Shown: positions 2,958-32,954, counted from the stretch's first letter. The stretch is DNA of 64,000 bases from an uncultured Chloroflexia bacterium (GCA_963700725.1 CAVOYS010000008.1:513047-577046), one strand, 5' to 3'. Made by a program: numbers and translations. Notes: generated from the sequence alone by a model not told the origin.

Positions 2958-3722
2958 TTGAGTGAAATTCGCGAACTTGGACTTTATTTGAATAGACAGG
3001 CCTCCAGCTTCGGTCGTTATTGCCTGGAACAAACTCTCTACCTCCTGCTTGGCTGGATTCCTACGATTGTTGGAATCGGTATTCGTGGATTGCTTTACAA
3101 GATAATTCTCAATATAGATGGTTGGGCGGCAATCGAAGATGGTGTTCGTTTGCGCTTCGGCAATTATATTTGGTTGGGACATGGTGCTTATATTGATAAA
3201 GGCGCTTATCTCCATGCTTGTCCCAATGGCATAAAGATTGGTGCAAATACCATCGTGATGTACGGGGCAATTCTCCACGTTTATAATTTTCGCGAGTTGC
3301 CTAATTCAGTTATCCGCATCGGTCGGGATTGCTTGATTGGCGAGAATAGCGTGATTCGTGGACAGGGAGGCGTCGAGATTGGTGACCGGGTTTATACCTC
3401 TCCGTTTACTCAGATTATTGCTGTGAATCATGTATTTGATGATCCTCTTCGACCTTTTGTTGAACAGGGTATCTCCGCAGAAGGAATCGTAATTGAGGAC
3501 GATGTCTGGCTTGGAGCTGGGTCCGTTATAACCGACGGCGTTACAATTGGTAAAGGCTCTGTCGTAGCCGCCGGTGCCGTCGTTACCAAGGATGTGGCCG
3601 CGGGCACGGTTGTCGGTGGTGTGCCGGCCCGGTTTATTCGCAATGTGGGTGTTGAAATCTCAAAAGCGAGTAGCCCGGAAATTTTTTTTGGTGGTGGTCG
3701 CCAATCTAAACGAGGGGATTAA
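2958..3722 (+). CDS. Hexapeptide-repeat (left-handed beta-helix) acyl/acetyltransferase, WcaF/LacA-like, with N-terminal membrane helix
   Basis: Repeated [LIV]-G-x4 hexapeptides: [88 protein letters not shown]. Hydrophobic N-terminus [19 protein letters not shown] start as called in the track; the start is uncertain. Confidence 0.8.
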
Positions 3723-4343
3723 CCATACTAAATGACACCATGTCTATTGTTTTGCTCGTATATTATGATGAAGGTGGGATATCCGTATCCGCCATGGTTA
3801 TTTCCCCCCAAAAAAAACCGTCATGGGATCAAATGATACCAAGAAAGCGGAAGCGGAACTTCGCTGAGTAAAGTCCCAATGATTGTAAACTGCGGGTACT
3901 TCTGCATTGGCCTACTCTGCGAGACCTAAACAACAGTTCCTGATGTGAAGGGTTTTTCAAGAATATTAATCTTAGACAATTCACGTTGACCATCTTGGCG
4001 CCTAATCCTGGTTACCCGTTTCACTTTAAGATCTTAAAAAAGAGGATGTTACCGTTTAGGTATGAGAAGAGAGCAAGCTGATAGGAATAGGAGGTCCTTG
4101 TGCTAATATCAGGGACTACCGGCCGATTGACTTCGCTGGCGACAGAAATGCACCTTTCATAGGTGGGCGTTTCGCACTCGTTTGCCGATCAGGTAATTGA
4201 ACATGCCATTTTTTGTCTGGTCGCCGATAAATAATGCCTTAAACGCCAGCCAGGAGTATGTTTTGTCGAGGAAAGCTGACACGATTTCACGAATTGAAAA
4301 CTATAGCGCACCGTAAGAAACAGGTTCATAAAAACAGCGGAAA

Positions 4344-7073
4344 ATGAAACTAGAATATAGAACAAAACAAAGTCCGTTAAGGCTTATTAAGCTTGTGTTG
4401 CTCGCTTTGAGTTTGGGTGCTCTCCTGTCACTTATATCAGGTGTATTCGCTCAAAACACCGGAGAAAATTGGCAAGATCCTATCAATATTTCTCAATCAG
4501 CAGGAGCAAACAGTCCCCGTATTGTAGTTGATTCTCTCGGGCGATCTCACGTTATTTGGACATATTCCTCCAATAGTTTCGTTTACTCAAGAGAAAATGA
4601 GAGTGGGTGGAGCCAGCCGGAATTGGTTGAATTGCCATTTGGTACCCGGCGATATAATTTGGCATTGCGAGAAACTGAACAGACACCATTATACATCCCG
4701 CTTCTATTTGCGGACCCGGAAGGGAATATTCATGCTCTGTGGCGAGATGACGAAGCGACTTTGTTCCAGAGCAGGGTTGCGGCTGATGAGTTTGGGGTAT
4801 TTGAGGCTTGGTCGGTTCCACAGCAGCTAGCCGAAGCGGCTCTTGATATGAACCTTGAATTTTCCGACACCGGCCTAATGCATCTCGTTTATATTCGACC
4901 TCTTGAGTCTCCCCAGTTCCCGGCAGGTATATATTATCGACAATCTATCGATGATGGGGCAGCATGGTCAGCCCCGATACCGCTGTATCAATCACCCTAT
5001 TTCCAGTCTCTGGACGCCGGCCGAGCGAATGTCCAAATCACCACGACAGAAACCGATCAGCTTGTTGTCTCGTGGGAAGATCCGATACAAGAAAAATTGT
5101 TCGTCATCCATTCCGCTGACAGTGGTGGTACCTGGGATCCAGTCATCGAGGTGGATGGACGCCAAGAAACTGATGGAACGGATTCGTACGGACCTGGACA
5201 ACTCACCATGGCTTCATCTCAGAATGCGGTCCACCTCATGTGGCAGGCCGGCCATCAAGGCGATAACTGTGAAATCTACCATCAAATGTCCCCGAATGGT
5301 GGGGAAACCTGGTTACCTCAGCAGGAGGTGCTTGGCCTAATTTCTGACTGTGCTAACAAGCTATGGTTAGTTGATGATCCGTCAGGCAATTTGCTCCTGA
5401 TTGACGAGACGGAAGGTGGCACCTATGTAGCAGTCTGGGACGGACAGGAGTGGAGTGAACCATCGATAGAAGGAGCGATAACTTCATATGTTAATCCTGT
5501 AACTTTCCGAGAGATCGAACTAGCGTGCAAGCAGCCTGTAATTGCCGGTGTCGGAACAGAAGCGTCTCCCTACAGGATATCGGTACTTGGTTGTGAAAGC
5601 CAACCCAATCGAGATATTTGGCTTAGAACTGCCGAGCTGATCTCGTTGGTTGAACGCATTGCCCCTTCTGTGGAACCTGTTTGGCAACCGGCGGAGTTGT
5701 TAACCACAGCTGGGAGTATTGACGGGCTCGTAATGGCTGGCGATTCCGTAGGACAACTCCACGCGTTCTGGAGCCAGCAAAATCTGGAAACAAGTTCAAG
5801 TGATAGCATCTATTATGGTGGCTGGGATGGCATGTCGTGGTCTTCAGTTCGGGAAATATTTTCATCACCCAATGGATTATCTTCGGTTAAGCCATCGGTC
5901 ATATTTGATTCCCCAAATAAGCTATCGGCCGTATGGGTGGAAGGCGATCCAGGCGAGATCCTCTTCAGCCAATCGACCGCCGCGAATGCTTCGGCGCCCG
6001 CTGAATGGGCTGTGCCGATCAATTTGCCTTTACCTCGCGCGGCTGCCACAAATCCCAGTATTGCTCGTGATCGAAATGGATCTCTGTATGTGGCCTATGC
6101 TGTTCCGCTAAATGAAGATCGAGGAATCTATGTAACCACGTCAGTGGATGGGGGTGATAACTGGCATGAACCAGTTCGCGTTTTTAATGCGGTCGAATCT
6201 TCGTGGGATATGGTGGATGATCCAGAGTTAACCATAGGTGGAGACGGTACCCTACATCTCATGTGGATACGATATGGCTCACCGCCTCTTGGCATTCCGT
6301 TGTCCATCCATTATTCTGAGTCAACGAACGGGGGATTGACCTGGTCAGAACCAGATGAGGTTGCCCTGGGAAAGATATTGTGGGGCGAACCTCTCGCCAT
6401 CGGTGACCGGCTTATACACCGGTTATGGTACGTCGAGGGTGACGGAATCTGGAATGAAATTTCCATCGACTCCGGTCTGACATGGGGGCAGTTACAGCGC
6501 CTGCCAGGGTCCCAGGAAGTAGCATTTCCTTTGGATACTACTCTTGACCCCGCGGGCCGTCCGCATGTGGTAGCTATTGGTAGCAATCAAAAGTTGGGTC
6601 GCAGCCAGGGTAACTTGGTCAGGCATTGGATATGGTCTGATGATCGTTGGGTGATTGAGGAGAACCTCGATGTCGCCGGGAGTGGTGTAAGGAGCTTGGC
6701 TTCGACCGTTACAGTCGATGGAAAACTCGTAGTATTGTATAGCGGTCCATCTGAAGAGGTGGCAAACGATATTGGTCTGATGGATATTTACGGCAGTAGC
6801 CGGGTCCTTCATCTGCCGTCCATCTTATCGACACCTTTGCCGACTTTTACGCCTCAACCTCCACCACAGGTGACTGCGAGACCGACGCAAACGCCCGCGC
6901 CAACGCCAACTGTCTTTTTTCCAATAGAGCAAAATGAGGATGGGGGGCTGTCCCTTCCCATCGATACGAGCAGCCCGTTCGTTGGTCCTTTGGTTGGAGT
7001 GATACCGGCCATCATCGTTATTGTGGTAGCGTTTTTTGTCGTGGTCAGGATAATTCGAGGCGACCGGCGCTAG
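4344..7073 (+). CDS. BNR/Asp-box repeat (sialidase-like beta-propeller) surface protein with N-terminal signal, Pro/Thr-rich stalk and C-terminal TM anchor
   Basis: Six clear S-x-D-x-G-x-(T/A)-W Asp-boxes: SIDDGAAW, SADSGGTW, SPNGGETW, SVDGGDNW, STNGGLTW, SIDSGLTW. They alternate with G-x-LHLMW-type strands. Signal LVLLALSLGALLSLISGVFA. Stalk TPLPTFTPQPPPQVTARPTQTPAPTPT. Tail VGVIPAIIVIVVAFFVVVRIIRGDRR. Confidence 0.7.
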   Translation: MKLEYRTKQSPLRLIKLVLLALSLGALLSLISGVFAQNTGENWQDPINISQSAGANSPRIVVDSLGRSHVIWTYSSNSFVYSRENESGWSQPELVELPFGTRRYNLALRETEQTPLYIPLLFADPEGNIHALWRDDEATLFQSRVAADEFGVFEAWSVPQQLAEAALDMNLEFSDTGLMHLVYIRPLESPQFPAGIYYRQSIDDGAAWSAPIPLYQSPYFQSLDAGRANVQITTTETDQLVVSWEDPIQEKLFVIHSADSGGTWDPVIEVDGRQETDGTDSYGPGQLTMASSQNAVHLMWQAGHQGDNCEIYHQMSPNGGETWLPQQEVLGLISDCANKLWLVDDPSGNLLLIDETEGGTYVAVWDGQEWSEPSIEGAITSYVNPVTFREIELACKQPVIAGVGTEASPYRISVLGCESQPNRDIWLRTAELISLVERIAPSVEPVWQPAELLTTAGSIDGLVMAGDSVGQLHAFWSQQNLETSSSDSIYYGGWDGMSWSSVREIFSSPNGLSSVKPSVIFDSPNKLSAVWVEGDPGEILFSQSTAANASAPAEWAVPINLPLPRAAATNPSIARDRNGSLYVAYAVPLNEDRGIYVTTSVDGGDNWHEPVRVFNAVESSWDMVDDPELTIGGDGTLHLMWIRYGSPPLGIPLSIHYSESTNGGLTWSEPDEVALGKILWGEPLAIGDRLIHRLWYVEGDGIWNEISIDSGLTWGQLQRLPGSQEVAFPLDTTLDPAGRPHVVAIGSNQKLGRSQGNLVRHWIWSDDRWVIEENLDVAGSGVRSLASTVTVDGKLVVLYSGPSEEVANDIGLMDIYGSSRVLHLPSILSTPLPTFTPQPPPQVTARPTQTPAPTPTVFFPIEQNEDGGLSLPIDTSSPFVGPLVGVIPAIIVIVVAFFVVVRIIRGDRR

Positions 7074-7093: not shown

Positions 7094-9040
7094 ATGAACA
7101 TCATTGAATTACGCTCTTTACCTAAATGGTACGCATATTTTGATGTAACTTGTGCTGGGTTCGCCGGTGGGCTCTGGTTGGTTCGACCGCAACTCGGTTT
7201 CTGGCCGCTGTTCATTGGGCTTGCTCCTTGGGCGATACGTCTCCTTCTGTCCGGCCGGCCTAGTACCGCTACAGCTTTTGATCTGCCCCTGGCCATATTC
7301 CTTCTGACGGCGATCGTAAGTATATGGTCGGCATATGACCAGGAAACCGCCTGGGCAAAATTATGGCTGATATTAGGCGCAGTACTCTTATTTTATGCGT
7401 ACGCTAACTGGGCTGTTTCCGGCAACCGTTCGCGCAGTTACGAGCAGTCCTGGAGCCTGGCTATTCTAGGAGGATCGACAGCTATCTTTTTTTTGGCCAC
7501 CCATGATTGGGAAGCTTATCCGGCCAAGCTGCCATTTTTAATGACGCTTGGTCGAGCTCTTCAAACGCCTCTTCCAGCCTTCTCCTTTGAATATATCCAT
7601 CCTAATATCATCGGCAGTATCTTAGCGATGATGGCCCCCTTCGCCGGGGCAACCGTTTGGATGTCACGGGAAAAGGGAAGGCCGATTGAATTAGTTATCG
7701 CGATTGCTCTCCTGATCCTAATTCTCTTTGGTCTGCTGATGACGACAGCCAGAGGAGCCTGGATCGGCCTAATCGGGACCGTGGTGTTGGCTAGCATGTG
7801 GCCCTTATCTCGATATTTAACGCGAGATCGCCAAGGTCGGCGTTTATTATTTGTCGCGATCCCTTCAGCGTTTCTCCTTATATTTCTGCTCATTTTAGTG
7901 GCCGTGCCTGACAATTTTGCGCGGCTAATCGCCTGGTTACCTGCCTCAGAATCAGGCATAGTTCGGGGGGAATTGTACGCCAACAGCCTGGCGCTGCTGA
8001 ATGATTATCCCATCATCGGCGCCGGCTTAGGTAGCTTTATGATGCTCTATTCTACCTATTCGTTGTTGATCCAGGTTGGCTTCAATACGAGCAGCCACAA
8101 TATGTATTTTGATCTGATTATCGACCAGGGCATTGTCGCACTGGCGACTCTTTTCTGGATGTGGTTATTAATGGGCGAGGCGGTTCTGCGGAGTTTAGGC
8201 GACAAGCGGACACGTAAGACCAGGCGAAGGCGGGTGATAGATCAGACCTCTGTACAGATTTCTAATACTAATTTTGCGGAGAGTGACATTACTTCCCCCC
8301 ATTCGGGTACAGGTCGTGGGCAAATTTGGCGCCAAAATGTAATTTTAGGCGCCTCGGCAATGTCTTTAATGGTCATGCTGCTACATGGACTAGTAGATGA
8401 CTCGATCTATTACACCCGGGCGCTACTCATTTTCTTCCTACCTCTAGCTTTCTCAGTTCCAATCTTAAAGAAAACCGCTGCCCTGTCATGGCGACAGCGA
8501 GTTTACACGGCGTCAGCGGCCGCGCTAATTATTCTGGTTATCACTGTTATCTGGTGGCGGCCGTTAGGGTCTATAATGGAAGCAAACTTGGCATCCGTAC
8601 AACAAAGTAAGACAGAATTGAGTGTCTATACGTGGCCGGAATGGCCGGTTCAGGATGTGGTTCGCCGCCAGAGTGATCTCCGGTCGGTGATAGCCGGTTA
8701 TAAGCGGGCATTGAAAATTAATCCCGACAATGTCAGCGCAAACCGCCGGCTCGGTCAGATTGAGTTATCGTTGGCACAATATGAAGATGCCTTAGACCAC
8801 CTGGAGATGGCTTATGCCCGCTCGCCACAGGACAATGCAACCCGCCAGTTACTTGGCGAGGCTTACATAACCAATGGCGCTCTTGAAAAAGGGGCTGTGC
8901 TTTGGCAAACAATAGATAGTGGCCAACACCAATTACCGATACGGCAATTCTGGTATGGTTATATTGGCGATAATGAACGACAAGAAAATATCAGTATCGT
9001 CATAAATGCTCTAGATAGTAGCAGTGGTGAATTGGAGTAA
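7094..9040 (+). CDS. Wzy_C-domain (O-antigen ligase/polymerase family) polytopic membrane protein fused to a C-terminal TPR domain
   Basis: About 12 hydrophobic segments. Wzy_C signature region TTARGAWIGLIG ... RGELYANSLALLNDYPIIGAGLGSF ... SSHNMYFDLIIDQGIVAL. C-terminal TPR-like repeats YKRALKINPDNVSANRRLGQIELSLAQYEDALDHLEMAYARSPQDN. Confidence 0.75.
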   Translation: MNIIELRSLPKWYAYFDVTCAGFAGGLWLVRPQLGFWPLFIGLAPWAIRLLLSGRPSTATAFDLPLAIFLLTAIVSIWSAYDQETAWAKLWLILGAVLLFYAYANWAVSGNRSRSYEQSWSLAILGGSTAIFFLATHDWEAYPAKLPFLMTLGRALQTPLPAFSFEYIHPNIIGSILAMMAPFAGATVWMSREKGRPIELVIAIALLILILFGLLMTTARGAWIGLIGTVVLASMWPLSRYLTRDRQGRRLLFVAIPSAFLLIFLLILVAVPDNFARLIAWLPASESGIVRGELYANSLALLNDYPIIGAGLGSFMMLYSTYSLLIQVGFNTSSHNMYFDLIIDQGIVALATLFWMWLLMGEAVLRSLGDKRTRKTRRRRVIDQTSVQISNTNFAESDITSPHSGTGRGQIWRQNVILGASAMSLMVMLLHGLVDDSIYYTRALLIFFLPLAFSVPILKKTAALSWRQRVYTASAAALIILVITVIWWRPLGSIMEANLASVQQSKTELSVYTWPEWPVQDVVRRQSDLRSVIAGYKRALKINPDNVSANRRLGQIELSLAQYEDALDHLEMAYARSPQDNATRQLLGEAYITNGALEKGAVLWQTIDSGQHQLPIRQFWYGYIGDNERQENISIVINALDSSSGELE

Positions 9041-9041
9041 T

Positions 9042-10058
9042 ATGAGGCAGTCAGTATTGGTGACTGGTGGCGCGGGATTTATAGGTTCCCATGTAGCCGA
9101 GTACCTGCATACCGCAGGGTTCCAGGTGGTAGTCCTGGATGATTTGAGTGGTGGGAACCGGGACAGTGTTCCAGAGGGTGTGCTTTTTGAACAAGGATCC
9201 GTCGTGGATCAACATAAAGTGGATGCGTTATTCGCGGCTCATAAGTTCTCCCACGTATTTCACCTGGCCGCCTACGCGGCCGAGGTACTCAGCCACCATA
9301 TCAAGCGCTTCAATTACACGAATAATCTTATCGGTTCAACGAACCTTATCAATGCCTCGGTAAATTATAATGTTAGATGCTTTGTTTTTACGTCATCGAT
9401 TGGCGTCTATGGCAATACACCTTCGCCATTGACTGAGGATTTGACGCCATCGCCGAAGGATTCCTACGGCATCGCCAAATATGCAGTGGAGCTTGAATTG
9501 GCAGCCTGCCAGGAGATGTTTGATCTGAATTACATCATTTTCCGGCCGCATAACGTCTACGGAGAGCGCCAGAATATTGGCGACCGCTACCGGAATGTGA
9601 TTGGCATCTTCATAAACCAGGTGATGCAGAACCGGCCGATGTCTGTTTTTGGCGACGGCAGCCAGACCCGGGCCTTCTCTTATATATCCGATGTCGCCCC
9701 GGTAATCGCCGATTCGATAAATAATTCGGCCGCATACAACCAGATTTTTAACGTCGGCGCCGATAAAGCTTATTCCGTGATACAGCTGGCTACAGTAGTG
9801 GCCGAAGCGATGGGCGTTGAACCAGAAATTGAACATTTACCGGTCAGGTTTGAAGCCACGCACCCAATCAGCAGTCATGAAAAGATTCGGCGCATCATGG
9901 GCCATTATGAACCGGTGGCACTGGAACAGGGTGTAGCTCGCATGGCCGCGTGGGCAAAACGGGTTGGTGTACGCAAGAGCAGTCCTTTTGAGGAGATTGA
10001 AATACCTATAAAATTGCCACCAAGTTGGGCGGCCAATGAAACAGATAGCCTGGCATGA
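9042..10058 (+). CDS. NAD-dependent nucleotide-sugar epimerase/dehydratase (extended SDR)
   Basis: VLVTGGAGFIGSHV Rossmann motif and YGIAKYAVE (YxxxK). I prefer ATG 9042, which has GGAG 5 nt upstream and sits just after the upstream stop at 9040, over the track's GTG 9024. Its stop overlaps the wzm start (ATGA). Confidence 0.85.
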   Translation: MRQSVLVTGGAGFIGSHVAEYLHTAGFQVVVLDDLSGGNRDSVPEGVLFEQGSVVDQHKVDALFAAHKFSHVFHLAAYAAEVLSHHIKRFNYTNNLIGSTNLINASVNYNVRCFVFTSSIGVYGNTPSPLTEDLTPSPKDSYGIAKYAVELELAACQEMFDLNYIIFRPHNVYGERQNIGDRYRNVIGIFINQVMQNRPMSVFGDGSQTRAFSYISDVAPVIADSINNSAAYNQIFNVGADKAYSVIQLATVVAEAMGVEPEIEHLPVRFEATHPISSHEKIRRIMGHYEPVALEQGVARMAAWAKRVGVRKSSPFEEIEIPIKLPPSWAANETDSLA

Positions 10059-10954
10059 AAGATTCGACAGAACTCCCGGAAAATGTTACGGCACCTGGCA
10101 AGGATCTGCTGGCGTCGGCCGGATCGCCAAAGGTGGTTATCGAGGCTACTCACGGGCTAGCATCGCTTAAACTGGGCCTGGTTTGGGAATACCGGGAGCT
10201 CTTGTATTTCATGGTCTGGCGCGATATCAAGGTGCGTTACAAACAGACTTTTCTGGGTATCCTGTGGGTCTTGTTGCAGCCTCTGGTAAGCATCATCGTT
10301 TTTTCGGTGTTGTTTGGTTATTTACTGGCCGTGCCATCAGGTGATGTGCCCTATCCCATATTTCTATATAGCGCTCTCTTGCCCTGGACCTACTTTTCTA
10401 CCTCTTTGACCCGCTCAACCACGGGTGTGGTCAATAGCTCCCATCTGATCACCAAAGTCTATTTTCCCCGGCTCGTGATACCCATCAGCGGGGTATTATC
10501 TGGCTTGCTCGACTTTGCTATTGCCTTCGTCATCTTGATAGGACTGATGCTAGTCTATCAGATCAATCCGACGCCAAATATCGTATTTCTGCCCGGTTTT
10601 ATCCTGTTGGCCATGCTGACCGCCCTGGCTTTTGGTCTGTGGCTCTCGGCTTTGAATGTTCGTTTCCGGGATGTGAACTATATGTTGCCTTTCGTCGTCC
10701 AGGTCTGGATGTATCTGACACCGGTGGTTTATGGCAGTAACCTGATCCCCGAACCTTACCGTTTTTTGTTAGCATTGAATCCAATGACCGGGGTGGTGGC
10801 GGGTTTTCGCTGGGCGCTTTTGGGCGACTACCTGGCCGATGCCGCCCCGCCAGATGCATTATTTCCAATATCTATCGCCATCACCCTGATAGTGCTTATA
10901 AGCGGCATTGTCTTTTTCAGGACCACGGAGCGGACGTTTGCCGATATTATCTAG
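10055..10954 (+). CDS. wzm: ABC-2 type polysaccharide/O-antigen export permease
   Basis: Typical Wzm/TagG N-terminus WRDIKVRYKQTFLGILWVLLQP and six hydrophobic segments. Immediately followed by the cognate ATPase. Confidence 0.85.
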   Translation: MKDSTELPENVTAPGKDLLASAGSPKVVIEATHGLASLKLGLVWEYRELLYFMVWRDIKVRYKQTFLGILWVLLQPLVSIIVFSVLFGYLLAVPSGDVPYPIFLYSALLPWTYFSTSLTRSTTGVVNSSHLITKVYFPRLVIPISGVLSGLLDFAIAFVILIGLMLVYQINPTPNIVFLPGFILLAMLTALAFGLWLSALNVRFRDVNYMLPFVVQVWMYLTPVVYGSNLIPEPYRFLLALNPMTGVVAGFRWALLGDYLADAAPPDALFPISIAITLIVLISGIVFFRTTERTFADII

Positions 10955-23536: not shown

Positions 23537-24313
23537 ATGGTATTCAGTAGAAAATTCGGATATCTATTTATCGAAGTGCCCCTAACCGGAAGCTGGACAA
23601 TTCATCTTGAGCTCTGCAAGCGATACGGGGGAGAAGCAATCTTGCACAAGCACGCTTCTTACCAGGAATTTGTTCATTCCGGTTATTTCAAAGAGATATC
23701 GTCATTGTTCGCATTTGCCACAATCCGCAATCCTCTCGATGAAGCGGTTAGTCGATACTTTAAATATAGATCTGACCATAAAGGGGTGTTTTCGAATCCG
23801 AATAGTATAGTTGCGTTTAGAGCTGACTACACTGACCTTGAAAAATTTCAATATATTCAAAAGACAGGCGCTGATTTCAGTGCGTTCTTCCTGAGATACT
23901 ACCGGTGGCCATACAGTAATATGCTCGACTATTTTCCCAAGCACCTGTCCTACCTAATGCGATTTGAACAACTTCAAACCGATTTCAATTCGGTTCTCAG
24001 CCGGCTTTGCATAGAGCCAGAAGGAGATCTGCTTAGGAGAAACAAAACTGATGACCGAGATGAAAATTGGAAACCTTATTACTCTTCCGCTGCGATCGAA
24101 AGGGCTAAGAGGGTTATGGCACCTTTCATGGCGCAATGGGGTTATCACTTTCCAAAAGAATGGGGCGAATACCACCCGGGGAAATTAGAAAATCTTGAAT
24201 ATCGGGCATTAAATCAAATACGAATGTTTTACTCCGTTAATGCCCGTTATAAGGATAACGTCCTTGCTCGCCAATTACGCCGACTTATGTTGTTGTATTC
24301 ACGGAATAAGTAA
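23537..24313 (+). CDS. Sulfotransferase-like protein (Sulfotransfer_2-like motifs, non-canonical)
   Basis: YLFIEVPLTGSWT resembles the 5'-PSB loop (f-I-H-I-P-K-T-G-G-T). FATIRNPLDEAVSRYFKY resembles the 3'-PB motif (RNP-x-D-R-x-x-S-x-Y). The PSB lysine is Leu here and the DR is DE, so activity and assignment are uncertain. Motif-level call only. Confidence 0.45.
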   Translation: MVFSRKFGYLFIEVPLTGSWTIHLELCKRYGGEAILHKHASYQEFVHSGYFKEISSLFAFATIRNPLDEAVSRYFKYRSDHKGVFSNPNSIVAFRADYTDLEKFQYIQKTGADFSAFFLRYYRWPYSNMLDYFPKHLSYLMRFEQLQTDFNSVLSRLCIEPEGDLLRRNKTDDRDENWKPYYSSAAIERAKRVMAPFMAQWGYHFPKEWGEYHPGKLENLEYRALNQIRMFYSVNARYKDNVLARQLRRLMLLYSRNK

Positions 24314-24325: not shown

Positions 24326-25225
24326 TTGCCTGACCTAACTCTTTCAATCATCAGTTCTAACAATCTGGAACAGTTGCGTTCCTGTTTAACATCTATTATT
24401 GCTGCAACTTCCGACACGATGCTCGAAATAATTGTGGTAGATAATGCCTCAGATGATAACACCTATGATTCTGTTCAAAGAGAGTTTCCCCATGTTCAAT
24501 TAATGCGTAATGTGAGCAGCCTCGGTTTTTCGACAAACAACAATCTGGTCTTGGAACAGGGGTGCGGACGGTATTTAATGTTGTTGAACGACGATACTTG
24601 GATTACCGATGGCGCGCTGGATCGCCTGGTACTATTTATGGATAGCCACGCGGAAGCGGCCGCCGTTGGGGCTTTTTTACTGAACCCAGATGGATCGCCG
24701 CAAGCATCGTATGCGCCTTTTCCGCGGCCGGTTTCTGAGGCAATCTTCCCGGTTAGCAATTGGCCTCGACCAATTACCGGGAAGAAAGTCGAGCCGTTCC
24801 AGGTGGACAGCGTCTGCGGGGCTGCTATGCTAGTTAGGCGAGAGATCGTGGCTAGTGTGGGTTTACTCGACCCGGACTTTGACCCAATTTATTCTGAAGA
24901 AGTAGACTGGTGCTATCGGATAAAAGCCAGCGGTGGGAAAATCTTCATGCACCCGGAAGCCAGGATAATCCACTATGGTAGCCAGACAATGGACAGGGTA
25001 GTCCCTCGGAAATATGCACTTTTGTTGGCCCACAAACATCTATTTTTTAAGAAGCATTACGGTGCCCGATCGGCTGCTACCTACAAGGTAATACTTCTGA
25101 TCGTTACGGGTATCAAGTTCCTTTGGTGGTCTCTTTTTGAATTCCTAAAACCCCCGAACAGTTCGAGGCAATCTCGAGCTGCTTTACATAAAGGTTTAAT
25201 CTCTCGGATTCGACAGTTTAGCTGA
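24326..25225 (+). CDS. Glycosyltransferase family 2
   Basis: LSIISSNNLEQLRSCLTSI ... IIVVDNASDDNT ... YLMLLNDDTWI ... EEVDWCYRIKASGGKIFMHPEARIIHYG. TTG start. Confidence 0.85.
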   Translation: MPDLTLSIISSNNLEQLRSCLTSIIAATSDTMLEIIVVDNASDDNTYDSVQREFPHVQLMRNVSSLGFSTNNNLVLEQGCGRYLMLLNDDTWITDGALDRLVLFMDSHAEAAAVGAFLLNPDGSPQASYAPFPRPVSEAIFPVSNWPRPITGKKVEPFQVDSVCGAAMLVRREIVASVGLLDPDFDPIYSEEVDWCYRIKASGGKIFMHPEARIIHYGSQTMDRVVPRKYALLLAHKHLFFKKHYGARSAATYKVILLIVTGIKFLWWSLFEFLKPPNSSRQSRAALHKGLISRIRQFS

Positions 25226-25237: not shown

Positions 25238-26551
25238 ATGAAGACACAATTGCAGAAAGCCATTACAAACACCAGAATGATGCTTTTCGTAATATTGATG
25301 GTCTCTATTCTAATAAGGATCATAGTCGCCATCTACCTGGGCGATTCAACACCGCCGGGCAAAGACGAAACATCCTACTCGCTACTTGCTGGCCGGTTGG
25401 CTGACGGTTTTGGCTATAGTTTTGCTCAACCCTGGTACCCTTTCGCTCAAGCCGGGGAACCCACGGCGCACTGGTCATTTCTATACACAGCCTTCGTCGC
25501 CGGTATCTATAAGGTCGTAGGATTTCACCCCATGGCGGTTCGTCTTTTCAGTGCGCTATTGGGTGGACTCATGTTACCCTGGATGGTCTATCGTCTGACT
25601 CAACGGCTAGCCCCGGAACGCCCGAATTTGGCCTTGATAGCCGCCGCCTGCGCCGGAATCTACGCGTACTTTGTCCTCTTCTCGGCCATGTTGATGACCG
25701 AAACCTTTTACATAGTCGCCATTCTTATCTCCTTGGAACGTGCGCTAGCCCTGGAACAGCAGCTAAAGTCTGGCGAGCGCCCTGGATGGGCATTGCTTTT
25801 AGGCTTTGGAATAAGCCTGGGTGTGGCTGCATTATTACGACAATCCATATTGCCCTGGTTGATTATTCTATTTGCCTGGCTACTTCGGACTGGCTGGCGT
25901 AGCAAAAATCTGCAACCAACGATTCGTTCATTGTTGGTCAGTGGTTTCATTTTGATAATGTTTATTTTGCCTTTCACCATACGCAATTACCGTGTTTATG
26001 GAGTTTTTTTACTGTTGAACTCCAATGCGGGTTATGCTATGTACTCAGCCCAGCACCCACTGCATGGGACAAACTTTCAGGCTTTCACCGCAGCACCGTT
26101 GCCGGCCGATCTAGAGCCAGTTCTTGAAAATGAAGCCCAGTGGGATAAGGTTCTGATGAAACGGGGCATTGATTTTATCATTCAAGATCCCGGACGTTAC
26201 TTGCTATTATCAGTTAGCCGTGCAGCCGATTACTTTATGTTCTGGCCAAGTAACGAAACATCTTCGATCAACAATATCGGCCGGGTGCTCTCCTTTGGCC
26301 TTTTTTTGCCGGTGATGATCTATGGGCTTATCGTCTCACGACATCAGTGGCGCCGATTTGAGCTTATTTACATTTTTATACTATTTTATTCGGTGTTACA
26401 CCTGATGACCTGGTCCATGATTCGTTATCGGCTACCAGTTGATGCACTTCTGCTAATATTTGCCGCATTTGGCATCCTGGATCTCATCAAAAGGATGCCT
26501 GTCTTAAGGCAATGGGCGCCTCCGGAGCTTTCCGCCAGAAGCGGGCCATAA
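25238..26551 (+). CDS. GT-C fold glycosyltransferase (PMT_2 / ArnT / GT39-83-like) membrane protein
   Basis: Polytopic, with the first-loop acidic motif GDSTPPGKDETSYSLLAGRLADGFGY typical of ArnT/PMT-type lipid-linked-sugar transferases. Confidence 0.7.
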   Translation: MKTQLQKAITNTRMMLFVILMVSILIRIIVAIYLGDSTPPGKDETSYSLLAGRLADGFGYSFAQPWYPFAQAGEPTAHWSFLYTAFVAGIYKVVGFHPMAVRLFSALLGGLMLPWMVYRLTQRLAPERPNLALIAAACAGIYAYFVLFSAMLMTETFYIVAILISLERALALEQQLKSGERPGWALLLGFGISLGVAALLRQSILPWLIILFAWLLRTGWRSKNLQPTIRSLLVSGFILIMFILPFTIRNYRVYGVFLLLNSNAGYAMYSAQHPLHGTNFQAFTAAPLPADLEPVLENEAQWDKVLMKRGIDFIIQDPGRYLLLSVSRAADYFMFWPSNETSSINNIGRVLSFGLFLPVMIYGLIVSRHQWRRFELIYIFILFYSVLHLMTWSMIRYRLPVDALLLIFAAFGILDLIKRMPVLRQWAPPELSARSGP

Positions 26552-27045
26552 TCGATTTTTTTAGTGGTAATTATATCGGGGATCTTTGAGGTGTTGTCTG
26601 TTCGTTCTTTCTGGTGAATATGTTGGGTCAGCATACGGCCACCAATTTTCAAAATACTCTTGCCGGGTATGCCTCTTCCAGATTTCGGTATTCACTGGTC
26701 AAGCTCTTGTTCAAATAGGTTTTCATTTTTAACAGTATGATCACAAACAGCGACCCGGACTTCTTCGGCATGAACCTTGGCCCGAGGGAATAAGAAGCTC
26801 TCTGACTACGATTCGTGCCTTGTATCTAGCCCACGAAACCACTGGAGCGCGTAAATAAGGAATTGCTTGCTCCCGAGCCACTGACTGGCCAACGCGTAAG
26901 CCGTACCAATGCCGGTGACGCCGCTTTCATTATTTTTTCAGTTGACGAGGATACACACGATTCCATATACCCAGATGATAAGATATCGACCTTATTTCGC
27001 GATTGCACTGTCAGGCAACTTGATTATTGTTTGGAATTTTAACCA

Positions 27046-28162
27046 ATGCGCCTAGTTTATTGCCTACTGTCACCAACCTTTGGTATGCACCAATACACCT
27101 CCGATCTGGCGAATCGAATGGTCGAACGGCATGAGGTCCACCTAGTGACAGTACCCAGTTATCCGGCCGATCGATATGCGCCGGCTGTACAAATTCATAC
27201 ACCGGCCAAAGTGACCAATACTGGTCTGTCGGTGGAGAGCCTGAGGTTCAGGAGTCTCAGTCGTTTAAAGGCTGAAATCCAACGTATTCAACCGGAGATG
27301 GTGCACTTTACTGGACCCCATTTATGGAATCCATACCTATTATATTGGCTAAAACGGCGAGGAATTCAAACAATCCATACGGTGCATGACTTACATCCTC
27401 ATTCGGGAACGCCTCTAAAACCATTGCTTAGATTTTGGAACCGGGTTGTTGTACGTTGGTCTGGCCGAACCCTCGTCCATGGTCGATGTTACCAGCAGGA
27501 GTTGCTTGAATCTGGTTTGCCGACATTTCGTGTAGTCTACTTTCCTTTATTGCACTTATTCTTAAGTTTTCGACGGACCCAGGCTCTAATAGAGAATCTG
27601 GAACCAGTGAGTTATGATCCTTTGATCCTGTTCTTTGGCCGTCTAGAACGATACAAAGGTATAGGAACCCTAATTGAGGCATATCGGCGCTGCCAAGCGG
27701 GATGAATCGTTGTCTGCCATCACCTCTCAAAAGTTGCTCATCGCCGGACCCGGTGAAATTCTTGACGAGTGGCGCGCCTACCATTCCGAGGGAATCGAGT
27801 GGCGAAATAGATTGATAGGTGACGTTGAAGCTGAAGCACTCTTCAGGAGCTGTAGTATCTTGGTATTGCCATACGACGATGCCACCCAATCCGCGTTAAT
27901 TGGCGCGGCCTATTTTTTCCATAAACCGGTCATAGTTACCAGGAGCGGTGGACTACCAGAATACGTGATCGAGGGACAGACGGGGGACGTGGTTCCTGCA
28001 CTAGATGTCGATGCATTGGCAAACATGCTACAATCACGGCTAGCGACTAAAGTTGAGCTTAAAGCCATGGGGGATTCGGGCAGAGAGTGGTATGACGCTC
28101 AGAGGAGATCGGAAACGCACGCGCTGTACAATATGTATGAAACAGACCAGGCAATCGCCTGA
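27046..28162 (+). pseudogene. GT4 glycosyltransferase split into two ORFs (27046-27705 and 27674-28162) by a +1 frameshift
   Basis: The N-terminal ORF ends ...LILFFGRLERYKGIGTLIEAYRRCQAG*. The second frame continues ...DESLSAITSQKLLIAGPGEILDEW ... VLPYDDATQSALIGAAYFFHKPVIVTRSGGLPEYVIEGQTGDV. Together they make one ordinary GT4. Removing one G from GGG at 27699-27701 restores a single frame. Confidence 0.7.
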
Positions 28163-28185: not shown

Positions 28186-29685
28186 ATGGTCTTGACTTCA
28201 GCTGACAAAGCAGAAGCGCCATCATTCGATCAGTCAAGAACAACAAAGCGGAAACGACTTCGCCTACACTCCATGGGCTTGCGGATGTCGGAACGCAAAC
28301 TGTTGCTCATGGTTTTTGACGTATTATTCCTCTGTTGTTCCTTGATCCTGGCTGTCAGTCTACGGACGGATTTACTACCGAGTTTGGAGGCGGTCCTTCT
28401 AAGCTCCAAGTGGTATGTCACCCTGTTGATAGTATGGGCGGTGATGGCCAATGTGTTTGATGTCTATAACCTGGCCAGGTCTGCTGACCCAGGATACAGT
28501 TTTTGGTCGATAGCAGGTGCGGTTGGACTGACAGGCCTCATTTATCTGGGCATTCCTTGGCTGACCCCACCGTTAGCAAATCGAAGCTATGGGGTTCTGT
28601 TTATATTTTGTGCAATTGTCAGCGTTTCACTGTGGCGGATTTTGTACGCCAGACTTTTTGTCCAGCCAGTTTTCCAACACAGAGCCCTGGTTGTCGGCGC
28701 AGGCGGCAGTGGGCAAGCGCTGGTTAGTGCGTTACAAAAGATTGGTTCGACGGCAAAGGGCACCCCTTTTCAGGGAACAGGAATTATTATTGTCGGATTC
28801 ACTGATGATGATCCAAACCGGGAAGGGGAAATGGTTTTGGGTGTTCCCATCCTCGGCGATAGCAAAAATCTGTTAGATCTCGTGGAATCATTGGAGATAG
28901 ATGAGCTTGTTATCGCGATTACCGAATCAGCTAGCATTAGCCCAGAGTTATACGAGGCGATACTCGATTGCCGTGAAAAAGGCCTGCCCGTCGTAACTAT
29001 GCCTACTATCTACGAACGGCTAACCGGACGGGTGGCTATCGAACACGCTGGTTTAAATATCGAATTGGCGACCGGGCAATCTGATGGCGCATTCTTACGC
29101 ATGTTTAATATCGTGAAAAGGATAATCGATATATTTGGTGCATTAGCTGGTCTGTTGCTATTGTGCCTGATCGCACCTTTTGTTGCTCTGGGAAATTCAA
29201 TTGCGTCTCCTGGTCCCCTATTTTTTCGACAAGATAGACTAGGTCGCGGAGGTAGAGTTATTTCTATCATTAAATTTCGATCCATGCGTCCTGGAGCTGA
29301 GGAGCAGAGTGGTGCTGTTTGGGCAGCAGAAAACGATCCTCGGGTTACTTCATTCGGCCGGTGGTTACGAAACACCCATATGGACGAAATACCTCAGTTC
29401 ATCAATATACTGCTCGGCGAGATGAGCATGGTCGGTCCCCGTCCGGAGAGACCTGAGTTCGTGGAACAGTTATCAAAGGGCATACCGTTTTATCGTGCCC
29501 GGCATTCGGTCCGGCCCGGAATTACGGGATGGGCGCAGATCCACCAGGATTACGGCGATTCGTTCTCCCGGGCCGTCGAAAAATTGGAGTACGACTTGTA
29601 TTATGTCAAGCGAGCAGGTTTCAGGCTTGATACTATCATCCTGCTTCGTACAATTACCAAAGTACTTGGGCTGAAAGGTCGCTGA
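28186..29685 (+). CDS. Polyprenyl-phosphate glycosyl-1-phosphate transferase (WbaP/EpsL-type initiating sugar transferase)
   Basis: N-terminal TM block, central Rossmann-like VVGAGGSGQALV, and the C-terminal Bac_transf domain KFRSMRPGAEEQSG..WAAENDPRVTSFGRWLRNTHMDEIPQFINILLGEMSMVGPRPERPEF. AGGGAG sits upstream of the ATG. Confidence 0.9.
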   Translation: MVLTSADKAEAPSFDQSRTTKRKRLRLHSMGLRMSERKLLLMVFDVLFLCCSLILAVSLRTDLLPSLEAVLLSSKWYVTLLIVWAVMANVFDVYNLARSADPGYSFWSIAGAVGLTGLIYLGIPWLTPPLANRSYGVLFIFCAIVSVSLWRILYARLFVQPVFQHRALVVGAGGSGQALVSALQKIGSTAKGTPFQGTGIIIVGFTDDDPNREGEMVLGVPILGDSKNLLDLVESLEIDELVIAITESASISPELYEAILDCREKGLPVVTMPTIYERLTGRVAIEHAGLNIELATGQSDGAFLRMFNIVKRIIDIFGALAGLLLLCLIAPFVALGNSIASPGPLFFRQDRLGRGGRVISIIKFRSMRPGAEEQSGAVWAAENDPRVTSFGRWLRNTHMDEIPQFINILLGEMSMVGPRPERPEFVEQLSKGIPFYRARHSVRPGITGWAQIHQDYGDSFSRAVEKLEYDLYYVKRAGFRLDTIILLRTITKVLGLKGR

Positions 29686-29713: not shown

Positions 29714-30961
29714 TTGAAAATTCTTTTTCTCACACAAGTACTCCCTTATCCTCTTTATGGAGGGGCCAAGGTGCGTGCATATTTTATGTTGCGTTACCTG
29801 GCCCGTGAACATGATATCACGCTCGTATCGTTCATAAGGACCGACGACCGACCAGAAGATTTAGAACATCTTCGTGAATATTGTAAGCAGGTTCACACAA
29901 TCCCGCTTCGGCGCAACCACCTGAAGGATGTATTGGCCCTGATAGAAAGTTTTATCACCGGCCGGCCGGCGGTCATCATTCGAGATCGTGTTGCTAGGAT
30001 GCGTCGCCTGCTTGAGGAACTTGTTTTGAATGGACGGTATGATGTCATACATGCGGATCAGACGTCAATGGCGGAATATGCCTTGTTTGCCCAATCTCAA
30101 GCAAACAAGATCCAACTACCTAAGATCCTCCTTGATGAACACAATGCTTTGCATCATGTGGTTCAAAGGCAAGCAGAATACGAAACTGGATACTCTCGTT
30201 GGCTGTACTATCGAGAAGCTCGACTCCTGGCAAACTATGAGCGAAAGTTGCTCCGGTATTTCGATCACATATTGACGGTAACTGAAGAAGACAAAGAGAC
30301 CCTTCTAAAATTGTTCCCGGATGATGAAGGATCTCTAATCGCCCAGAGGATGTCAGTCGTACCGATCTGTATCGATACCGAATCTGCCGCGGTTGAAATT
30401 CAGGCAGGTGAGAGACCGCAGATTGTTCATCTCGGAACGATGTTTTGGCCTCCGAACGTCGAAGCCGTCCAGTGGTTTGCCAAGGAGGTGTTGCCACTGG
30501 TAATCGAGCAAGTGCCTCATGTCCGATTTGTTATCGCGGGTAAGGATCCTCCACCTTCAATTAAGAACCTGGCCGGTCACAAATCAGAGTACGGTGACCG
30601 GGTTGATGTACTAGGCTTTGTCAGAGAGCCAGACAAACTGATAGCAGCCAGCCAGGTATTTGTTGTTCCTATCCAGGCTGGTGGCGGTATGCGGGTGAAG
30701 ATTCTGGATGCGTGGTCTTGGGGTATACCGGTCGTTTCAACGTCAATCGGTGCAGAAGGCATCCGTATTATTCCGGGTAAGAATATTTTGATTGCAGATG
30801 ATCGAAACGAATTTTCCGAATTGGTGGTTAAGGCTCTTCTCGATAAGGAGCTTGCAGCCAAATTAGTATCCGAAGGACGGGGGTGGGTAAACAAACATTA
30901 TAACTGGCGATCGACCTATAAGGCAGTCGACGAAGTCTATCGCCAGTTGGTAAGCGGCTAG
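29714..30961 (+). CDS. Glycosyltransferase family 4
   Basis: TTG start giving MKILFLTQVLPYPLYGGAK. PIQAGGGMRVKILDAWSWGIPVVSTSIGAEGI. Confidence 0.85.
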   Translation: MKILFLTQVLPYPLYGGAKVRAYFMLRYLAREHDITLVSFIRTDDRPEDLEHLREYCKQVHTIPLRRNHLKDVLALIESFITGRPAVIIRDRVARMRRLLEELVLNGRYDVIHADQTSMAEYALFAQSQANKIQLPKILLDEHNALHHVVQRQAEYETGYSRWLYYREARLLANYERKLLRYFDHILTVTEEDKETLLKLFPDDEGSLIAQRMSVVPICIDTESAAVEIQAGERPQIVHLGTMFWPPNVEAVQWFAKEVLPLVIEQVPHVRFVIAGKDPPPSIKNLAGHKSEYGDRVDVLGFVREPDKLIAASQVFVVPIQAGGGMRVKILDAWSWGIPVVSTSIGAEGIRIIPGKNILIADDRNEFSELVVKALLDKELAAKLVSEGRGWVNKHYNWRSTYKAVDEVYRQLVSG

Positions 30962-31262
30962 GCAAACTCAAGAAATGGTGGTCCTGACCTTTAGCTATCG
31001 ACCATTAATAACAAGGTTCATTGGATCCATGCTACCAATCAATGATGGGCATGCGTGCCTAAACGGAATATTCAATATAAAGTGATTGATAAACCTAGTA
31101 ACTCCCTGGAAAACGGATTTATTGAGAGAGTAGCCTATTTATGATTGACAGCGTATGCAAGACATGTAATTTCCGCGCACTGTCTGAAGGAGGTTGGCTG
31201 CCAGCACTCCGTGAAGTATACTTAATTTTTAACTTAGCCTTACAATCTGACCCAAAGCAATC

Positions 31263-32954
31263 ATGGAACTGAAAGAATTCATTGCCCCCTTAAGAAAATG
31301 GTGGTGGCTAATAGTCCTGGCCACAATTATTGCTGGCACGGTAAGCTACTTGTCAGCCCGCCAGCAACCAGAACAGTACCGGGCTAGAACAACATTGATG
31401 ATCGGCCGGGCGATAGATAATCCGAACCCTTCCGGAGCTGAATTTTGGCTTACTCAACAATTAGCTCAAACTTACGCCGAAATCGCATCAAGGCAACCCG
31501 TCCGCGATGCAACAATGGTCGCACTCGGACTGGATTGGCTGCCTGAAATTGGAGTTCGGCCCCTCGCAGATACGCAACTGATCGAAATCGCAGTAAGTGA
31601 TACAAGCCCACAAAGAGCGCAAGCTGTAGCTAACGAGTTGACGCACCAGTTGATTCTGCAAAGCCCGACCAGCTCTGAAGAAATGGAAGAACAATCGCGT
31701 CAATTCTTCATAAGCGATCAGTTAGATAGGCTTGAGAGTAAAATCGAAGATACCCAACAGGAGATCACCGAAAAACAAGAAGAGCAAGCTAGCGCAACCG
31801 GAGCGAGGCAATTTGCCGATCTCCAGAATCAAATTGAGGCATTACAGGCGAAGCTCGGAACGTTGCAGTCAAACTACGCGGATTTACTTTCAAACTCGCG
31901 CCAGGGTGCTATTAACACCTTAAATATTATTGAACCGGCATCATTACCTACCGTTCCTATCGGACCGGTGACCGCAACAACCGTGTTGGTTGCCGCAGCG
32001 ATTGGGCTTACTCTTGCCACTGGGGCCGCCTATCTTCTTGAATACCTCGATGATTCTGTTACATCTCCTGACGAGGTATTAAAATTGACTGGGTTACCAA
32101 CCTTGGCAGGTATCGCCCGAATTTCAGATGAAGGTGAAGACGGCCGACTCATTACTCTCAGCATGCCACGGTCACCAACCAGTGAAGCGTATCGCGTCCT
32201 GCGAACCGGGATTCAATTTTCGGCTGTCGACAATCCAGATAGAGTCACCCTGATGGTCACTAGCGCTAATCCTTCCGAAGGTAAAAGCCTGACCGTTGCT
32301 AACTTAGGCATTGTTTTGGCTCAGGCTGGCCATAATGTTTTGGTTATCGATGCTGACCTTCGCCGGCCCGTTCAGCATAAGGTTTTCCGGTTACCCCAAC
32401 AAGGTGGGCTTACGAGTTTGTTGCTTGAAGTTGATCTCGCAATTGGCTCAACCAAGACGCTTGAGCTCATGAAGAAGATTATTCAACCAACAGCGGTCGA
32501 AGGTTTGCATGTTCTTACTAGTGGACCTATTCCTCCGAACCCCTCAGAGTTACTTGGATCCGTAAAAATGGAACGTGCGTTAGCGACGATGGCTGAACAA
32601 TATGATTATGTAATTCTTGACAGCCCACCAGTTTTGGCAGTGACCGACGCTTCAATCCTGAGCCAGCGCTCCGACGGTGTACTTCTTGTTACAGATGCCG
32701 GGAATAGTCGCCGAGGACCGCTTAAACAGGCTGTGGAGCAGCTAAAGGCGGGTAATGCGCATTTGATAGGTGTGGTACTGAATAAACTAAAGCCGCGCAG
32801 CGAAGGGTATTATACCTATTATTATTACCGGCATTCCTATTATCTCGATGAAAGTGAAATGGTCGCTGAGGAAAAATCTGCCAAGAATGGTAAGCGAAAT
32901 GGTGGCATACGTCAAAAGGGGCGTGGTCCGAAGGTAACGGAAAACCGTTCTTGA
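31263..32954 (+). CDS. wzc: Polysaccharide co-polymerase / tyrosine autokinase (Wzc-type BY-kinase: Wzz domain fused to P-loop kinase)
   Basis: Two TM segments flank a coiled-coil-rich region. Walker A SANPSEGKS, A' VLVIDADLRRP, Walker B YVILDSPP. C-terminal Tyr cluster EGYYTYYYYRHSYYLD. Confidence 0.9.
   Translation: MELKEFIAPLRKWWWLIVLATIIAGTVSYLSARQQPEQYRARTTLMIGRAIDNPNPSGAEFWLTQQLAQTYAEIASRQPVRDATMVALGLDWLPEIGVRPLADTQLIEIAVSDTSPQRAQAVANELTHQLILQSPTSSEEMEEQSRQFFISDQLDRLESKIEDTQQEITEKQEEQASATGARQFADLQNQIEALQAKLGTLQSNYADLLSNSRQGAINTLNIIEPASLPTVPIGPVTATTVLVAAAIGLTLATGAAYLLEYLDDSVTSPDEVLKLTGLPTLAGIARISDEGEDGRLITLSMPRSPTSEAYRVLRTGIQFSAVDNPDRVTLMVTSANPSEGKSLTVANLGIVLAQAGHNVLVIDADLRRPVQHKVFRLPQQGGLTSLLLEVDLAIGSTKTLELMKKIIQPTAVEGLHVLTSGPIPPNPSELLGSVKMERALATMAEQYDYVILDSPPVLAVTDASILSQRSDGVLLVTDAGNSRRGPLKQAVEQLKAGNAHLIGVVLNKLKPRSEGYYTYYYYRHSYYLDESEMVAEEKSAKNGKRNGGIRQKGRGPKVTENRS

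Follow-up and report, generated by a model that had tools for sequence, protein, structure and literature searches.

The stretch of DNA analysed here, 64,000 nucleotides from an uncultured Chloroflexia bacterium (GCA_963700725.1, CAVOYS010000008.1:513047-577046; hereafter the window), carries a run of glycan-assembly genes at positions 2958-32954. This run is best read as the local form of an envelope-glycan locus that is conserved class-wide in Anaerolineae (Chloroflexota). Every open reading frame (ORF) of at least about 120 residues was scanned across the 64 kb with Pfam and NCBIfam. The run consists of 21 consecutive genes on the + strand, or 22 ORFs, one gene being split by a frameshift. 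The earlier note on this DNA had seen in it an initiating transferase of the WbaP type (PHPT, an enzyme that transfers a hexose-1-phosphate to polyisoprenyl phosphate), nine glycosyltransferases (GT) of families GT4 and GT2, the Wzm/Wzt ATP-binding cassette (ABC) exporter, two Wzy_C proteins and a Wzc-type tyrosine kinase. The ORF listing and the domain scans bear out the run and these assignments, including the nine GT4/GT2 enzymes (Pfam). The features, all on the + strand, are as follows.

2958-3722, +: hexapeptide-repeat (WcaF/WbbJ-like) acyltransferase, first gene of the cluster (Pfam Hexapep; NCBIfam WcaF below cutoff)
3882-4307, +: degenerate radical SAM relic (tblastn)
4344-7073, +: BNR909, 909 residues (Pfam BNR_2)
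7094-9040, +: Wzy_C-TPR (Pfam Wzy_C with C-terminal TPR)
9024-10058, +: NAD-dependent sugar epimerase/dehydratase, GalE-like (Pfam Epimerase; NCBIfam galE 160 bits, below cutoff)
10055-10954, +: Wzm, ABC-2 permease (Pfam ABC2_membrane; NCBIfam galactan and KpsM permease families below cutoff)
10970-12229, +: Wzt, ABC ATPase with C-terminal carbohydrate-binding Wzt_C (Pfam ABC_tran; Wzt_C 43 bits, cutoff 30.4)
12567-13850, +: GT4, variable low-GC region (Pfam)
13929-15134, +: GT4, variable low-GC region (Pfam)
15340-16797, +: BNR485, 485 residues (Pfam BNR_2, below cutoff)
16888-18060, +: GT2, variable chain-building (Pfam)
18240-19487, +: GT4, variable chain-building (Pfam)
19524-20696, +: GT4, variable chain-building (Pfam)
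20905-22113, +: GT4e, stp1-like GT4 (Pfam; TIGR03087 230 bits, cutoff 316.65)
22110-23522, +: Wzy_C2 (Pfam Wzy_C)
23537-24313, +: soluble 258-residue protein, weak sulfotransferase-like match (Pfam Sulfotransfer_1, E 0.003, below cutoff)
24326-25225, +: GT2b (Pfam)
25238-26551, +: minimal GT-C fold glycosyltransferase, 437 residues (Pfam match of homologues; AlphaFold/Foldseek)
27046-28162, +: GT4f, split into 27046-27705 and 27674-28162 (Pfam, each half)
28186-29685, +: WbaP-type PHPT primer (Pfam Bac_transf and CoA_binding_3; TIGR03025 350 bits, cutoff 295.55)
29714-30961, +: GT4g, second stp1-like GT4 (Pfam; TIGR03087 210 bits, below cutoff 316.65)
31263-32954, +: fused polysaccharide co-polymerase (PCP) and bacterial tyrosine kinase (BY-kinase), Wzc/CapAB-like (Pfam Wzz/AAA_31; TIGR01007 190 bits, cutoff 108)
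32983-33016, +: terminator-like site, 15-bp stem followed by a T-run, closing the cluster

Start and stop codons overlap at 10055-10058 (ATGA) and at 22110-22113 (TTGA), where the earlier note had placed them. The single strong terminator-like site stands directly beyond the last stop codon, and the next gene is in convergent orientation. Because 21 co-oriented genes end at this site and their order is conserved in dozens of genomes, the cluster is a real sugar-polymer locus whose layout goes beyond chance juxtaposition. Promoter-like matches were disregarded, since shuffled sequence yields them just as often. GC content is 0.42-0.44 across 12000-20000 versus 0.47-0.52 on both flanks; the transferases that differ from locus to locus lie in this dip. 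The rest of the window encodes housekeeping functions (Crp, AlaX-like, subtilase, QueF, SppA, Suf, GyrA, Opp and PolX).

Among the scanned ORFs of the window, no match was found to the MOP/Polysacc_synt families expected of a Wzx flippase (Pfam) or to Poly_export, expected of a Wza exporter, as the earlier note had claimed. Wza is not expected in a monoderm organism. The window also contains no LytR_cpsA_psr (LCP) match and no exosortase, and no S-layer protein gene was recognised among its ORFs. Wzm/Wzt is the sole exporter of lipid-linked glycans encoded in the locus, and 28186-29685 is the single PHPT gene of the window.

Gene order across the Anaerolineae

ORFs of 87 related loci, designated here by L numbers, were labelled by BLASTP against the window proteins. 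Nearly all of the relatives are Chloroflexota known from metagenome-assembled genomes; those with a lower rank belong to lineages of Anaerolineae type, namely Anaerolineales, Caldilineales, Thermoflexales, Promineifilaceae, Ardenticatenaceae and Ca. Amarolinea. Proteins identical to the window's Wzy_C-TPR and GT-C are recorded on a 603-kb contig. For Wzy_C2, all labelled relatives belong to Chloroflexota/Anaerolineae, except two odd bins. One assembly labelled 'Patescibacteria group bacterium' (L002; GCA_035527655.1, DATLAB010000033.1) carries an 82-97% identical copy of Chloroflexota type, and this taxonomic label is probably wrong.

The recurrent order is [Epim-Wzm-Wzt]-BNR485-GT2-GT4s-GT4e-Wzy_C2-GT2b-(GT-C)-GT4f-WbaP-GT4g-(GT-C)-Wzc, Epim standing for the epimerase. 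Gene order is held between Anaerolineae orders at protein identities of 40-60%. L027 (Thermoflexales) and L076 have the whole unit tightly packed on one strand, as Epim-Wzm-Wzt-BNR-GTs-GT4e-Wzy_C2-GT2b-GT4f-WbaP-GT4g-GT-C-Wzc; the close relatives L001-L003, L009 and L010 show this order too. GT4e, Wzy_C2, GT2b, GT4f, WbaP, GT4g, GT-C and Wzc are conserved, and the transferases between Wzt and GT4e vary. Wzt lies upstream of this core in at least 16 of the 52 loci that have at least 8 kb of upstream sequence, a count that takes in two partial ORFs confirmed as Wzt_C; in most of the others, the sequence ends still within the run of glycan genes. Four loci (L022, L026, L036 and L071) are apparently without Wzm/Wzt adjoining the core. 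Wzm/Wzt, BNR, Wzy_C, GT-C, WbaP and Wzc thus recur in one order across the Anaerolineae. The earlier note had asked whether an association of this kind, with the TPR protein in it, is conserved. The association with a Wzy_C protein is indeed conserved, but the class-wide Wzy_C is that at 22110-23522. A literature search found no description of the locus in Anaerolineae.

Relatives were also scanned for Wzx, using Pfam on unlabelled ORFs of at least 300 residues with several hydrophobic segments. No Pfam-detectable Wzx was found within 10 kb of Wzy_C2 in the 87 loci, to which this search was confined. Ten unlabelled ORFs with multiple transmembrane (TM) segments were considered as Wzx candidates and rejected, none being of the MOP type. 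The candidate multi-TM ORFs matched PMT_2 (two), GT2 synthase-like proteins (three), a transglutaminase (one), an Opp-like permease fusion (one) or nothing (five). Multi-TM synthase-like GT2 proteins (Glyco_trans_2_3) of about 405-415 residues occur in core loci at L022:16150-17364, L031:17484-18707 and L071:14778-16025.

The GT4 pair at 12567 and 13929 has low identity to its counterparts in other loci under BLASTP labelling, and the GT2/GT4 set at 16888-20696 is 21-49% identical across loci. GT4e is 31-59% identical to its best-matching counterparts, and a GT4e-like gene lies directly upstream of Wzy_C2 in most loci. GT2b is placed after Wzy_C2 in most loci. We considered GT2b as a polyprenyl-phosphate sugar synthase of the GtrB/ArnC type partnering GT-C. 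This assignment is unsupported: its best match in the PDB is SunS and its NCBIfam matches are generic. The 26551-27046 gap contains no GtrA-like small ORF. At the position of 23537-24313, L009 (an 87% relative) has a Methyltransf_21 gene, and in L005 a Sulfotransfer_3 gene comes after Wzt. The 23537-24313 protein is a candidate glycan-modifying or capping enzyme.

The left part of the cluster behaves differently from the core. The pair formed by BNR909 and Wzy_C-TPR recurs at 40-50% identity in L004, L005 and L092, and at 24-31% identity in a metagenome scan. In distant loci of this left type, the order begins with NusG-like, PHPT, epimerase, GHMP kinase, SIS, HAD, acyltransferase, GT2 and radical SAM genes. 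It continues with Wzy_C-TPR, a BNR protein of about 890 residues, another of about 510 residues, Wzm/Wzt where present, and GT2 genes. Judged from this gene order, Wzy_C-TPR and BNR909 form a separable upstream sub-module. The earlier note had held that independent occurrence of the left and right parts would speak against its reading. The result is divided: distant left-type loci are self-contained, but the two parts adjoin each other in the window, in L004/L064 and in L071, which are three separate lineages. A partial ORF upstream of the epimerase in L076 was considered as a TPR tail and rejected, since it resembles a BNR-type stalk and anchor. In L141, two Asn-synthase-like genes (Pfam) occupy the position of Wzm/Wzt, which are absent. 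This locus opens (L141:615-6030) with a NusG-like paralogue that may be an operon-specific antiterminator, followed by PHPT, epimerase, GHMP kinase, SIS isomerase and HAD phosphatase genes. The set looks like a heptose-nucleotide precursor pathway.

Two genes of the window appear degraded. Compared with an intact 367-residue orthologue (L009:4443-5546), GT4f has one extra nucleotide within a GGG run near 27701, which breaks it into two ORFs, and tblastn switches frame at residues 215/217. Either the gene became a pseudogene very recently or the assembly is wrong at this base. Downstream of the acyltransferase, a 622-bp gap holds about 140 C-terminal residues of a radical SAM protein, without intact ORF (tblastn with L141:8248-9912, residues 413-554, E 9e-12). 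In distant relatives, a radical SAM gene and a GT2 gene sit between the acyltransferase and Wzy_C-TPR, and the window has lost both from its left sub-module.

The acyltransferase at 2958-3722 has an N-terminal hydrophobic segment and is not a transporter. It is 62-76% identical in L106, L119, L127 and L141, while the adjoining Wzy_C-TPR is only 24-30% identical. Such identity points to an unusually strong constraint for a glycan-modifying enzyme. At the other end, the gene convergent to the BY-kinase gene (33003-34253, - strand) encodes an uncharacterised nucleotidyltransferase (NTP_transf_5) and is conserved at this place in L009 and L010. Two cyclic-nucleotide-binding proteins are also encoded near the cluster, a Crp-type regulator (34931-35671, - strand) and a cNMP-binding SpoIIE-type phosphatase (62649-63902, + strand).

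Membrane-bound and surface proteins of the locus

Wzy_C2 has about 12 TM helices and is the most conserved marker of the locus. It has at least 826 homologues, with a mean column identity of 60% (alignment A3). A search of the PDB with its sequence profile gave no match. Its AlphaFold model (pLDDT 82) matches WaaL best in the PDB (7tpg, E 3.8e-5, target-normalised TM-score 0.63), followed by the SEDS proteins RodA/FtsW. No Wzy polymerase chain is found among these fold matches.

Wzy_C-TPR is, from its sequence, a membrane protein of the WaaL/O-oligosaccharyltransferase family, with a TPR domain predicted to lie outside the membrane. In its alignment (A2), R220, R291 and G309/G311 are invariant and H335 is nearly so. 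At this last residue stands an HN-X9-G motif, found in Wzy_C2 at residue 367 as HN-X9-G-X2-G. We take HN-X9-G to be typical of WaaL and PilO. A profile search of the PDB with Wzy_C-TPR was swamped by TPR proteins. Aligned with hhalign, the two Wzy_C families reach a probability of 96% at 19% identity; they are distant paralogues.

The 25238-26551 protein itself gives no Pfam match, and a profile search of the PDB gave none either. It has more than 1,600 homologues, many of which carry PF13231 (PMT_2) or are named GT39 or ArnT-like; a protein of the same module in another locus (L008:19480-20847) is 50% identical. In the homologue alignment, the first outside loop carries a DE..Y motif, with D43/E44 nearly invariant and Y47 invariant. 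Search for similar folds with Foldseek, starting from the AlphaFold model (pLDDT 83.7), retrieved AglB, STT3, ArnT and PMT (E 1e-4, probability 1.0, query-normalised TM-score 0.52-0.59). No MOP transporter is present among the matches. On its predicted fold, the protein is a minimal GT-C glycosyltransferase resembling GT39/GT83, as the earlier note had supposed. Since it matches GT-C enzymes and no MOP transporter, it is not a hidden flippase.

The BY-kinase has two TM helices, an outside loop of about 200 residues and a Walker A motif, and tyrosines cluster at its C terminus (EGYYTYYYYRHSYY). Its best match in the PDB is S. aureus CapA/CapB (E 1e-48).

BNR909 and BNR485 are extracytoplasmic proteins that share one layout: a signal peptide, a propeller, a stalk rich in Pro, Thr and Ser, a C-terminal TM anchor and a basic tail. 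This layout is kept in 34 of 35 homologues (L001-L090). BNR909 contains two BNR beta-propeller-like units and corresponds to a tandem duplication of a BNR485-like unit; a sequence search of the PDB with it gave no match. Almost every related locus with BNR909 has it next to Wzy_C-TPR. BNR485 belongs to the class-wide core, usually right after Wzt. These proteins could be hydrolases or acceptors of glycosylation.

Related glycan loci

In the slg clusters of Geobacillus stearothermophilus and Paenibacillus alvei, a WbaP-like primer goes together with Wzm/Wzt and a transferase of the Wzy_C type, and this route is partly supported by experiment (PMC2943079). The systems compared are those of G. 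stearothermophilus NRS 2004/3a and P. alvei CCM 2051T (WsaP/WsfP, Wzm/Wzt, WsaB/WsfB). WsfB, the S-layer O-oligosaccharyltransferase of P. alvei, is made of Wzy_C and a C-terminal TPR (PMC2943079). The window shares with these clusters a WbaP-like PHPT, Wzm/Wzt with a carbohydrate-binding domain on Wzt, and a protein with a Wzy_C domain; the TPR of WsfB has its counterpart in the domain architecture of 7094-9040, a candidate O-oligosaccharyltransferase. Tight overlapping genes, a low-GC central transferase region and Wzm/Wzt upstream of the transferases are also common to both. The earlier note's comparison with slg clusters was thus apt. Unlike them, the window has no recognised S-layer protein gene and no rml genes, and it adds a second, class-wide Wzy_C, GT-C, PCP/BY-kinase and anchored BNR proteins. 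The slg hosts are Firmicutes, whereas the window organism belongs to Chloroflexota.

Lactococcal wall polysaccharide loci encode an ABC-exported rhamnan together with a second chain, which has a flippase, a polymerase and a chain-length regulator; the two chains are joined outside the cell by GT-C enzymes (PMC10821137). Like the window, the rhamnose-rich cwps and epa loci of lactococci and enterococci hold an ABC exporter and an extracytoplasmic GT-C in one locus. They differ in carrying the Wzx-type WpsG, TagO and GacI-like initiation, polymerases of GT-C type and LCP anchoring. The window has no Wzx or LCP, and instead shows PHPT initiation, WaaL-fold outside enzymes and a BY-kinase. The earlier note had treated the textbook ABC and Wzy routes as alternatives. 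Mixing an ABC exporter with polymerase-like, chain-length regulator and GT-C components has this lactococcal precedent (PMC10821137).

Two other types of locus share parts with the window. ABC-dependent O-antigen systems with WaaL ligation also have Wzm/Wzt with Wzt_C and a WaaL-fold enzyme (7tpg). Their lipid A-core acceptor is not expected here, their primer is WecA and not a PHPT, and the window has in addition a BY-kinase and GT-C. Chloroflexota are without lipopolysaccharide and beta-barrel assembly machinery genes, and have inner, outer and proteinaceous layers whose composition is not known (PMC13319060). Gram-positive Wzx/Wzy-dependent cps/cap loci (CpsC/D or CapA/B, CpsE, Wzy, Wzx) and XrtA/PEP-CTERM exopolysaccharide (EPS) loci, taken together, resemble the window by a PHPT, a CapAB-like BY-kinase with tyrosine tail, a Wzy_C protein and stp1-like GT4 enzymes. 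In contrast to these loci, the window has Wzm/Wzt and no Wzx, LCP or exosortase. Membership of the PEP-CTERM/exosortase group was rejected, because all family scores are below cutoff: TIGR03087, 230 and 210 versus 316.65; TIGR03013 (PHPT), 336 versus 393; TIGR03018 (kinase), 137 versus 231. These scores suggest a distant kinship with XrtA/PEP-CTERM EPS loci.

Assembly routes

We tentatively favour a route in which a finished chain would be primed by the PHPT, exported by Wzm/Wzt, transferred outside by WaaL-fold Wzy_C proteins and decorated or joined by GT-C, under regulation by the BY-kinase. The WbaP-type PHPT (28186), assigned by family membership, would start a lipid-linked glycan at the cytoplasmic face. 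A conserved adaptor at the reducing end would be made by GT4f, GT4g and GT4e and lengthened by the variable GT4/GT2 set of the low-GC region (12.5-20.7 kb), and the 23537 enzyme may cap the chain. The Wzm/Wzt exporter present in the locus would then take the finished chain as substrate; its Wzt_C module implies recognition of a glycan end. Outside the membrane, the WaaL-fold Wzy_C2 would attach the chain en bloc to an acceptor that is conserved. The high column identity of Wzy_C2 (about 60%) amid variable adjoining transferases is in keeping with an enzyme whose recognition site on the glycan, the reducing end, is conserved. GT-C would add or join a further sugar or chain, and the Firmicute-type PCP/BY-kinase would scaffold or regulate the machinery. 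More speculatively, the upstream sub-module, with its WsfB-like Wzy_C-TPR and its anchored tandem BNR protein, might add a second branch in the window's lineage. This would probably be protein O-glycosylation, the Pro/Thr-rich BNR stalks being candidate acceptors. The product plausibly forms non-peptidoglycan layers of filamentous Chloroflexota. En-bloc transfer had been proposed in the earlier note. It is partly supported, by the likeness to slg clusters, the conserved association and the lack of Wzx in the 87 loci, while the separable left sub-module counts against it.

Several points weigh against this route. A BY-kinase and its PCP classically partner Wzy polymerases, so that their presence favours a Wzy-type polymerisation step. 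The WaaL match of Wzy_C2 does not separate a ligase from a polymerase, as no Wzy chain is found among the PDB matches. Distant left-type loci own a PHPT, precursor genes and Wzm/Wzt, which points to a pair of separable pathways. In L071, both Wzy_C proteins occur in a locus without Wzm/Wzt. Finally, proteins of the 'O-antigen ligase family' can be Wzy polymerases, as is PrmJ, and a wzx deletion can be phenotypically silent when other flippases substitute (PMC11340318).

Two pathways may instead lie side by side, a possibility that we consider somewhat unlikely. Wzm/Wzt, the variable transferases and Wzy_C-TPR as ligase would then make a variable ABC-dependent glycan. WbaP, the three conserved GT4 enzymes, Wzy_C2 as polymerase and Wzc as co-polymerase would make a conserved Wzx/Wzy-dependent polymer, with a flippase encoded elsewhere in the genome. 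GT-C may join the two products outside the cell, by analogy with the lactococcal dual-chain wall polysaccharide. The distant left-type loci, self-contained with NusG-like, PHPT, precursor, Wzy_C-TPR, BNR and Wzm/Wzt genes, are consistent with this arrangement. So is the right module, which has all parts of a Wzy pathway but Wzx and which resembles XrtA/PEP-CTERM EPS genes below threshold, with a CapB-like kinase of a kind that normally pairs with Wzy. The published locus encoding an ABC-exported chain and a polymerised second chain joined by GT-C (PMC10821137) and the silent wzx deletion with its substitute flippases (PMC11340318) also argue for it. However, the 87 loci show no Wzx within 10 kb of Wzy_C2, the single PHPT of the window would have to serve both chains, and Wzm/Wzt directly heads the core module in several orders.

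A true hybrid of both textbook routes appears improbable. Here, Wzm/Wzt would flip short WbaP-primed repeats in place of Wzx, and Wzy_C2 would polymerise them under Wzc. Wzm/Wzt, Wzy_C2, WbaP and Wzc do co-occur in conserved order without Wzx, and ABC-type flippases of other architectures (PglK, Wzk) move undecaprenyl-diphosphate-linked oligosaccharides. Yet characterised Wzm/Wzt exporters handle completed chains, Wzt_C fits recognition of a chain end, and there is no experimental precedent of Wzm/Wzt feeding a Wzy polymerase. It is very improbable that these glycan genes came together by accident or are decaying, without integrated function. The GT4f frameshift, the reduction of the radical SAM gene to a relic and the low-GC middle of the cluster, suggestive of horizontal replacement, would agree with decay. 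Against it, the order is conserved across Anaerolineae orders at 40-60% protein identity, every other gene is intact, and the frameshift, one base within GGG, may stem from the assembly.

Whichever route operates, the locus is kin to slg-type and dual-chain loci, and stands out by its conservation throughout the class, the lack of Wzx, its BY-kinase and its minimal GT-C. The most novel proposal is that, class-wide in Anaerolineae, Wzm/Wzt replaced Wzx in feeding a Wzy_C/BY-kinase machine, which with GT-C and BNR proteins builds the inner and outer envelope layers. We regard this as unlikely; if true, it would be an undescribed fourth combination of known glycan-assembly parts. The locus lends itself to testing if the ABC and Wzy routes are truly alternatives, and which role a BY-kinase has without Wzx. 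Wzy_C2 and the minimal GT-C are well-conserved markers that could be used to annotate Anaerolineae metagenome-assembled genomes. The multilayered envelopes of Chloroflexota are unexplained in composition and biogenesis (PMC13319060), and this class-wide locus supplies concrete candidate genes. Because it is found class-wide, mixes parts of two export routes and has no recognisable Wzx, the cluster is a good candidate for building the outer envelope layers of Anaerolineae.

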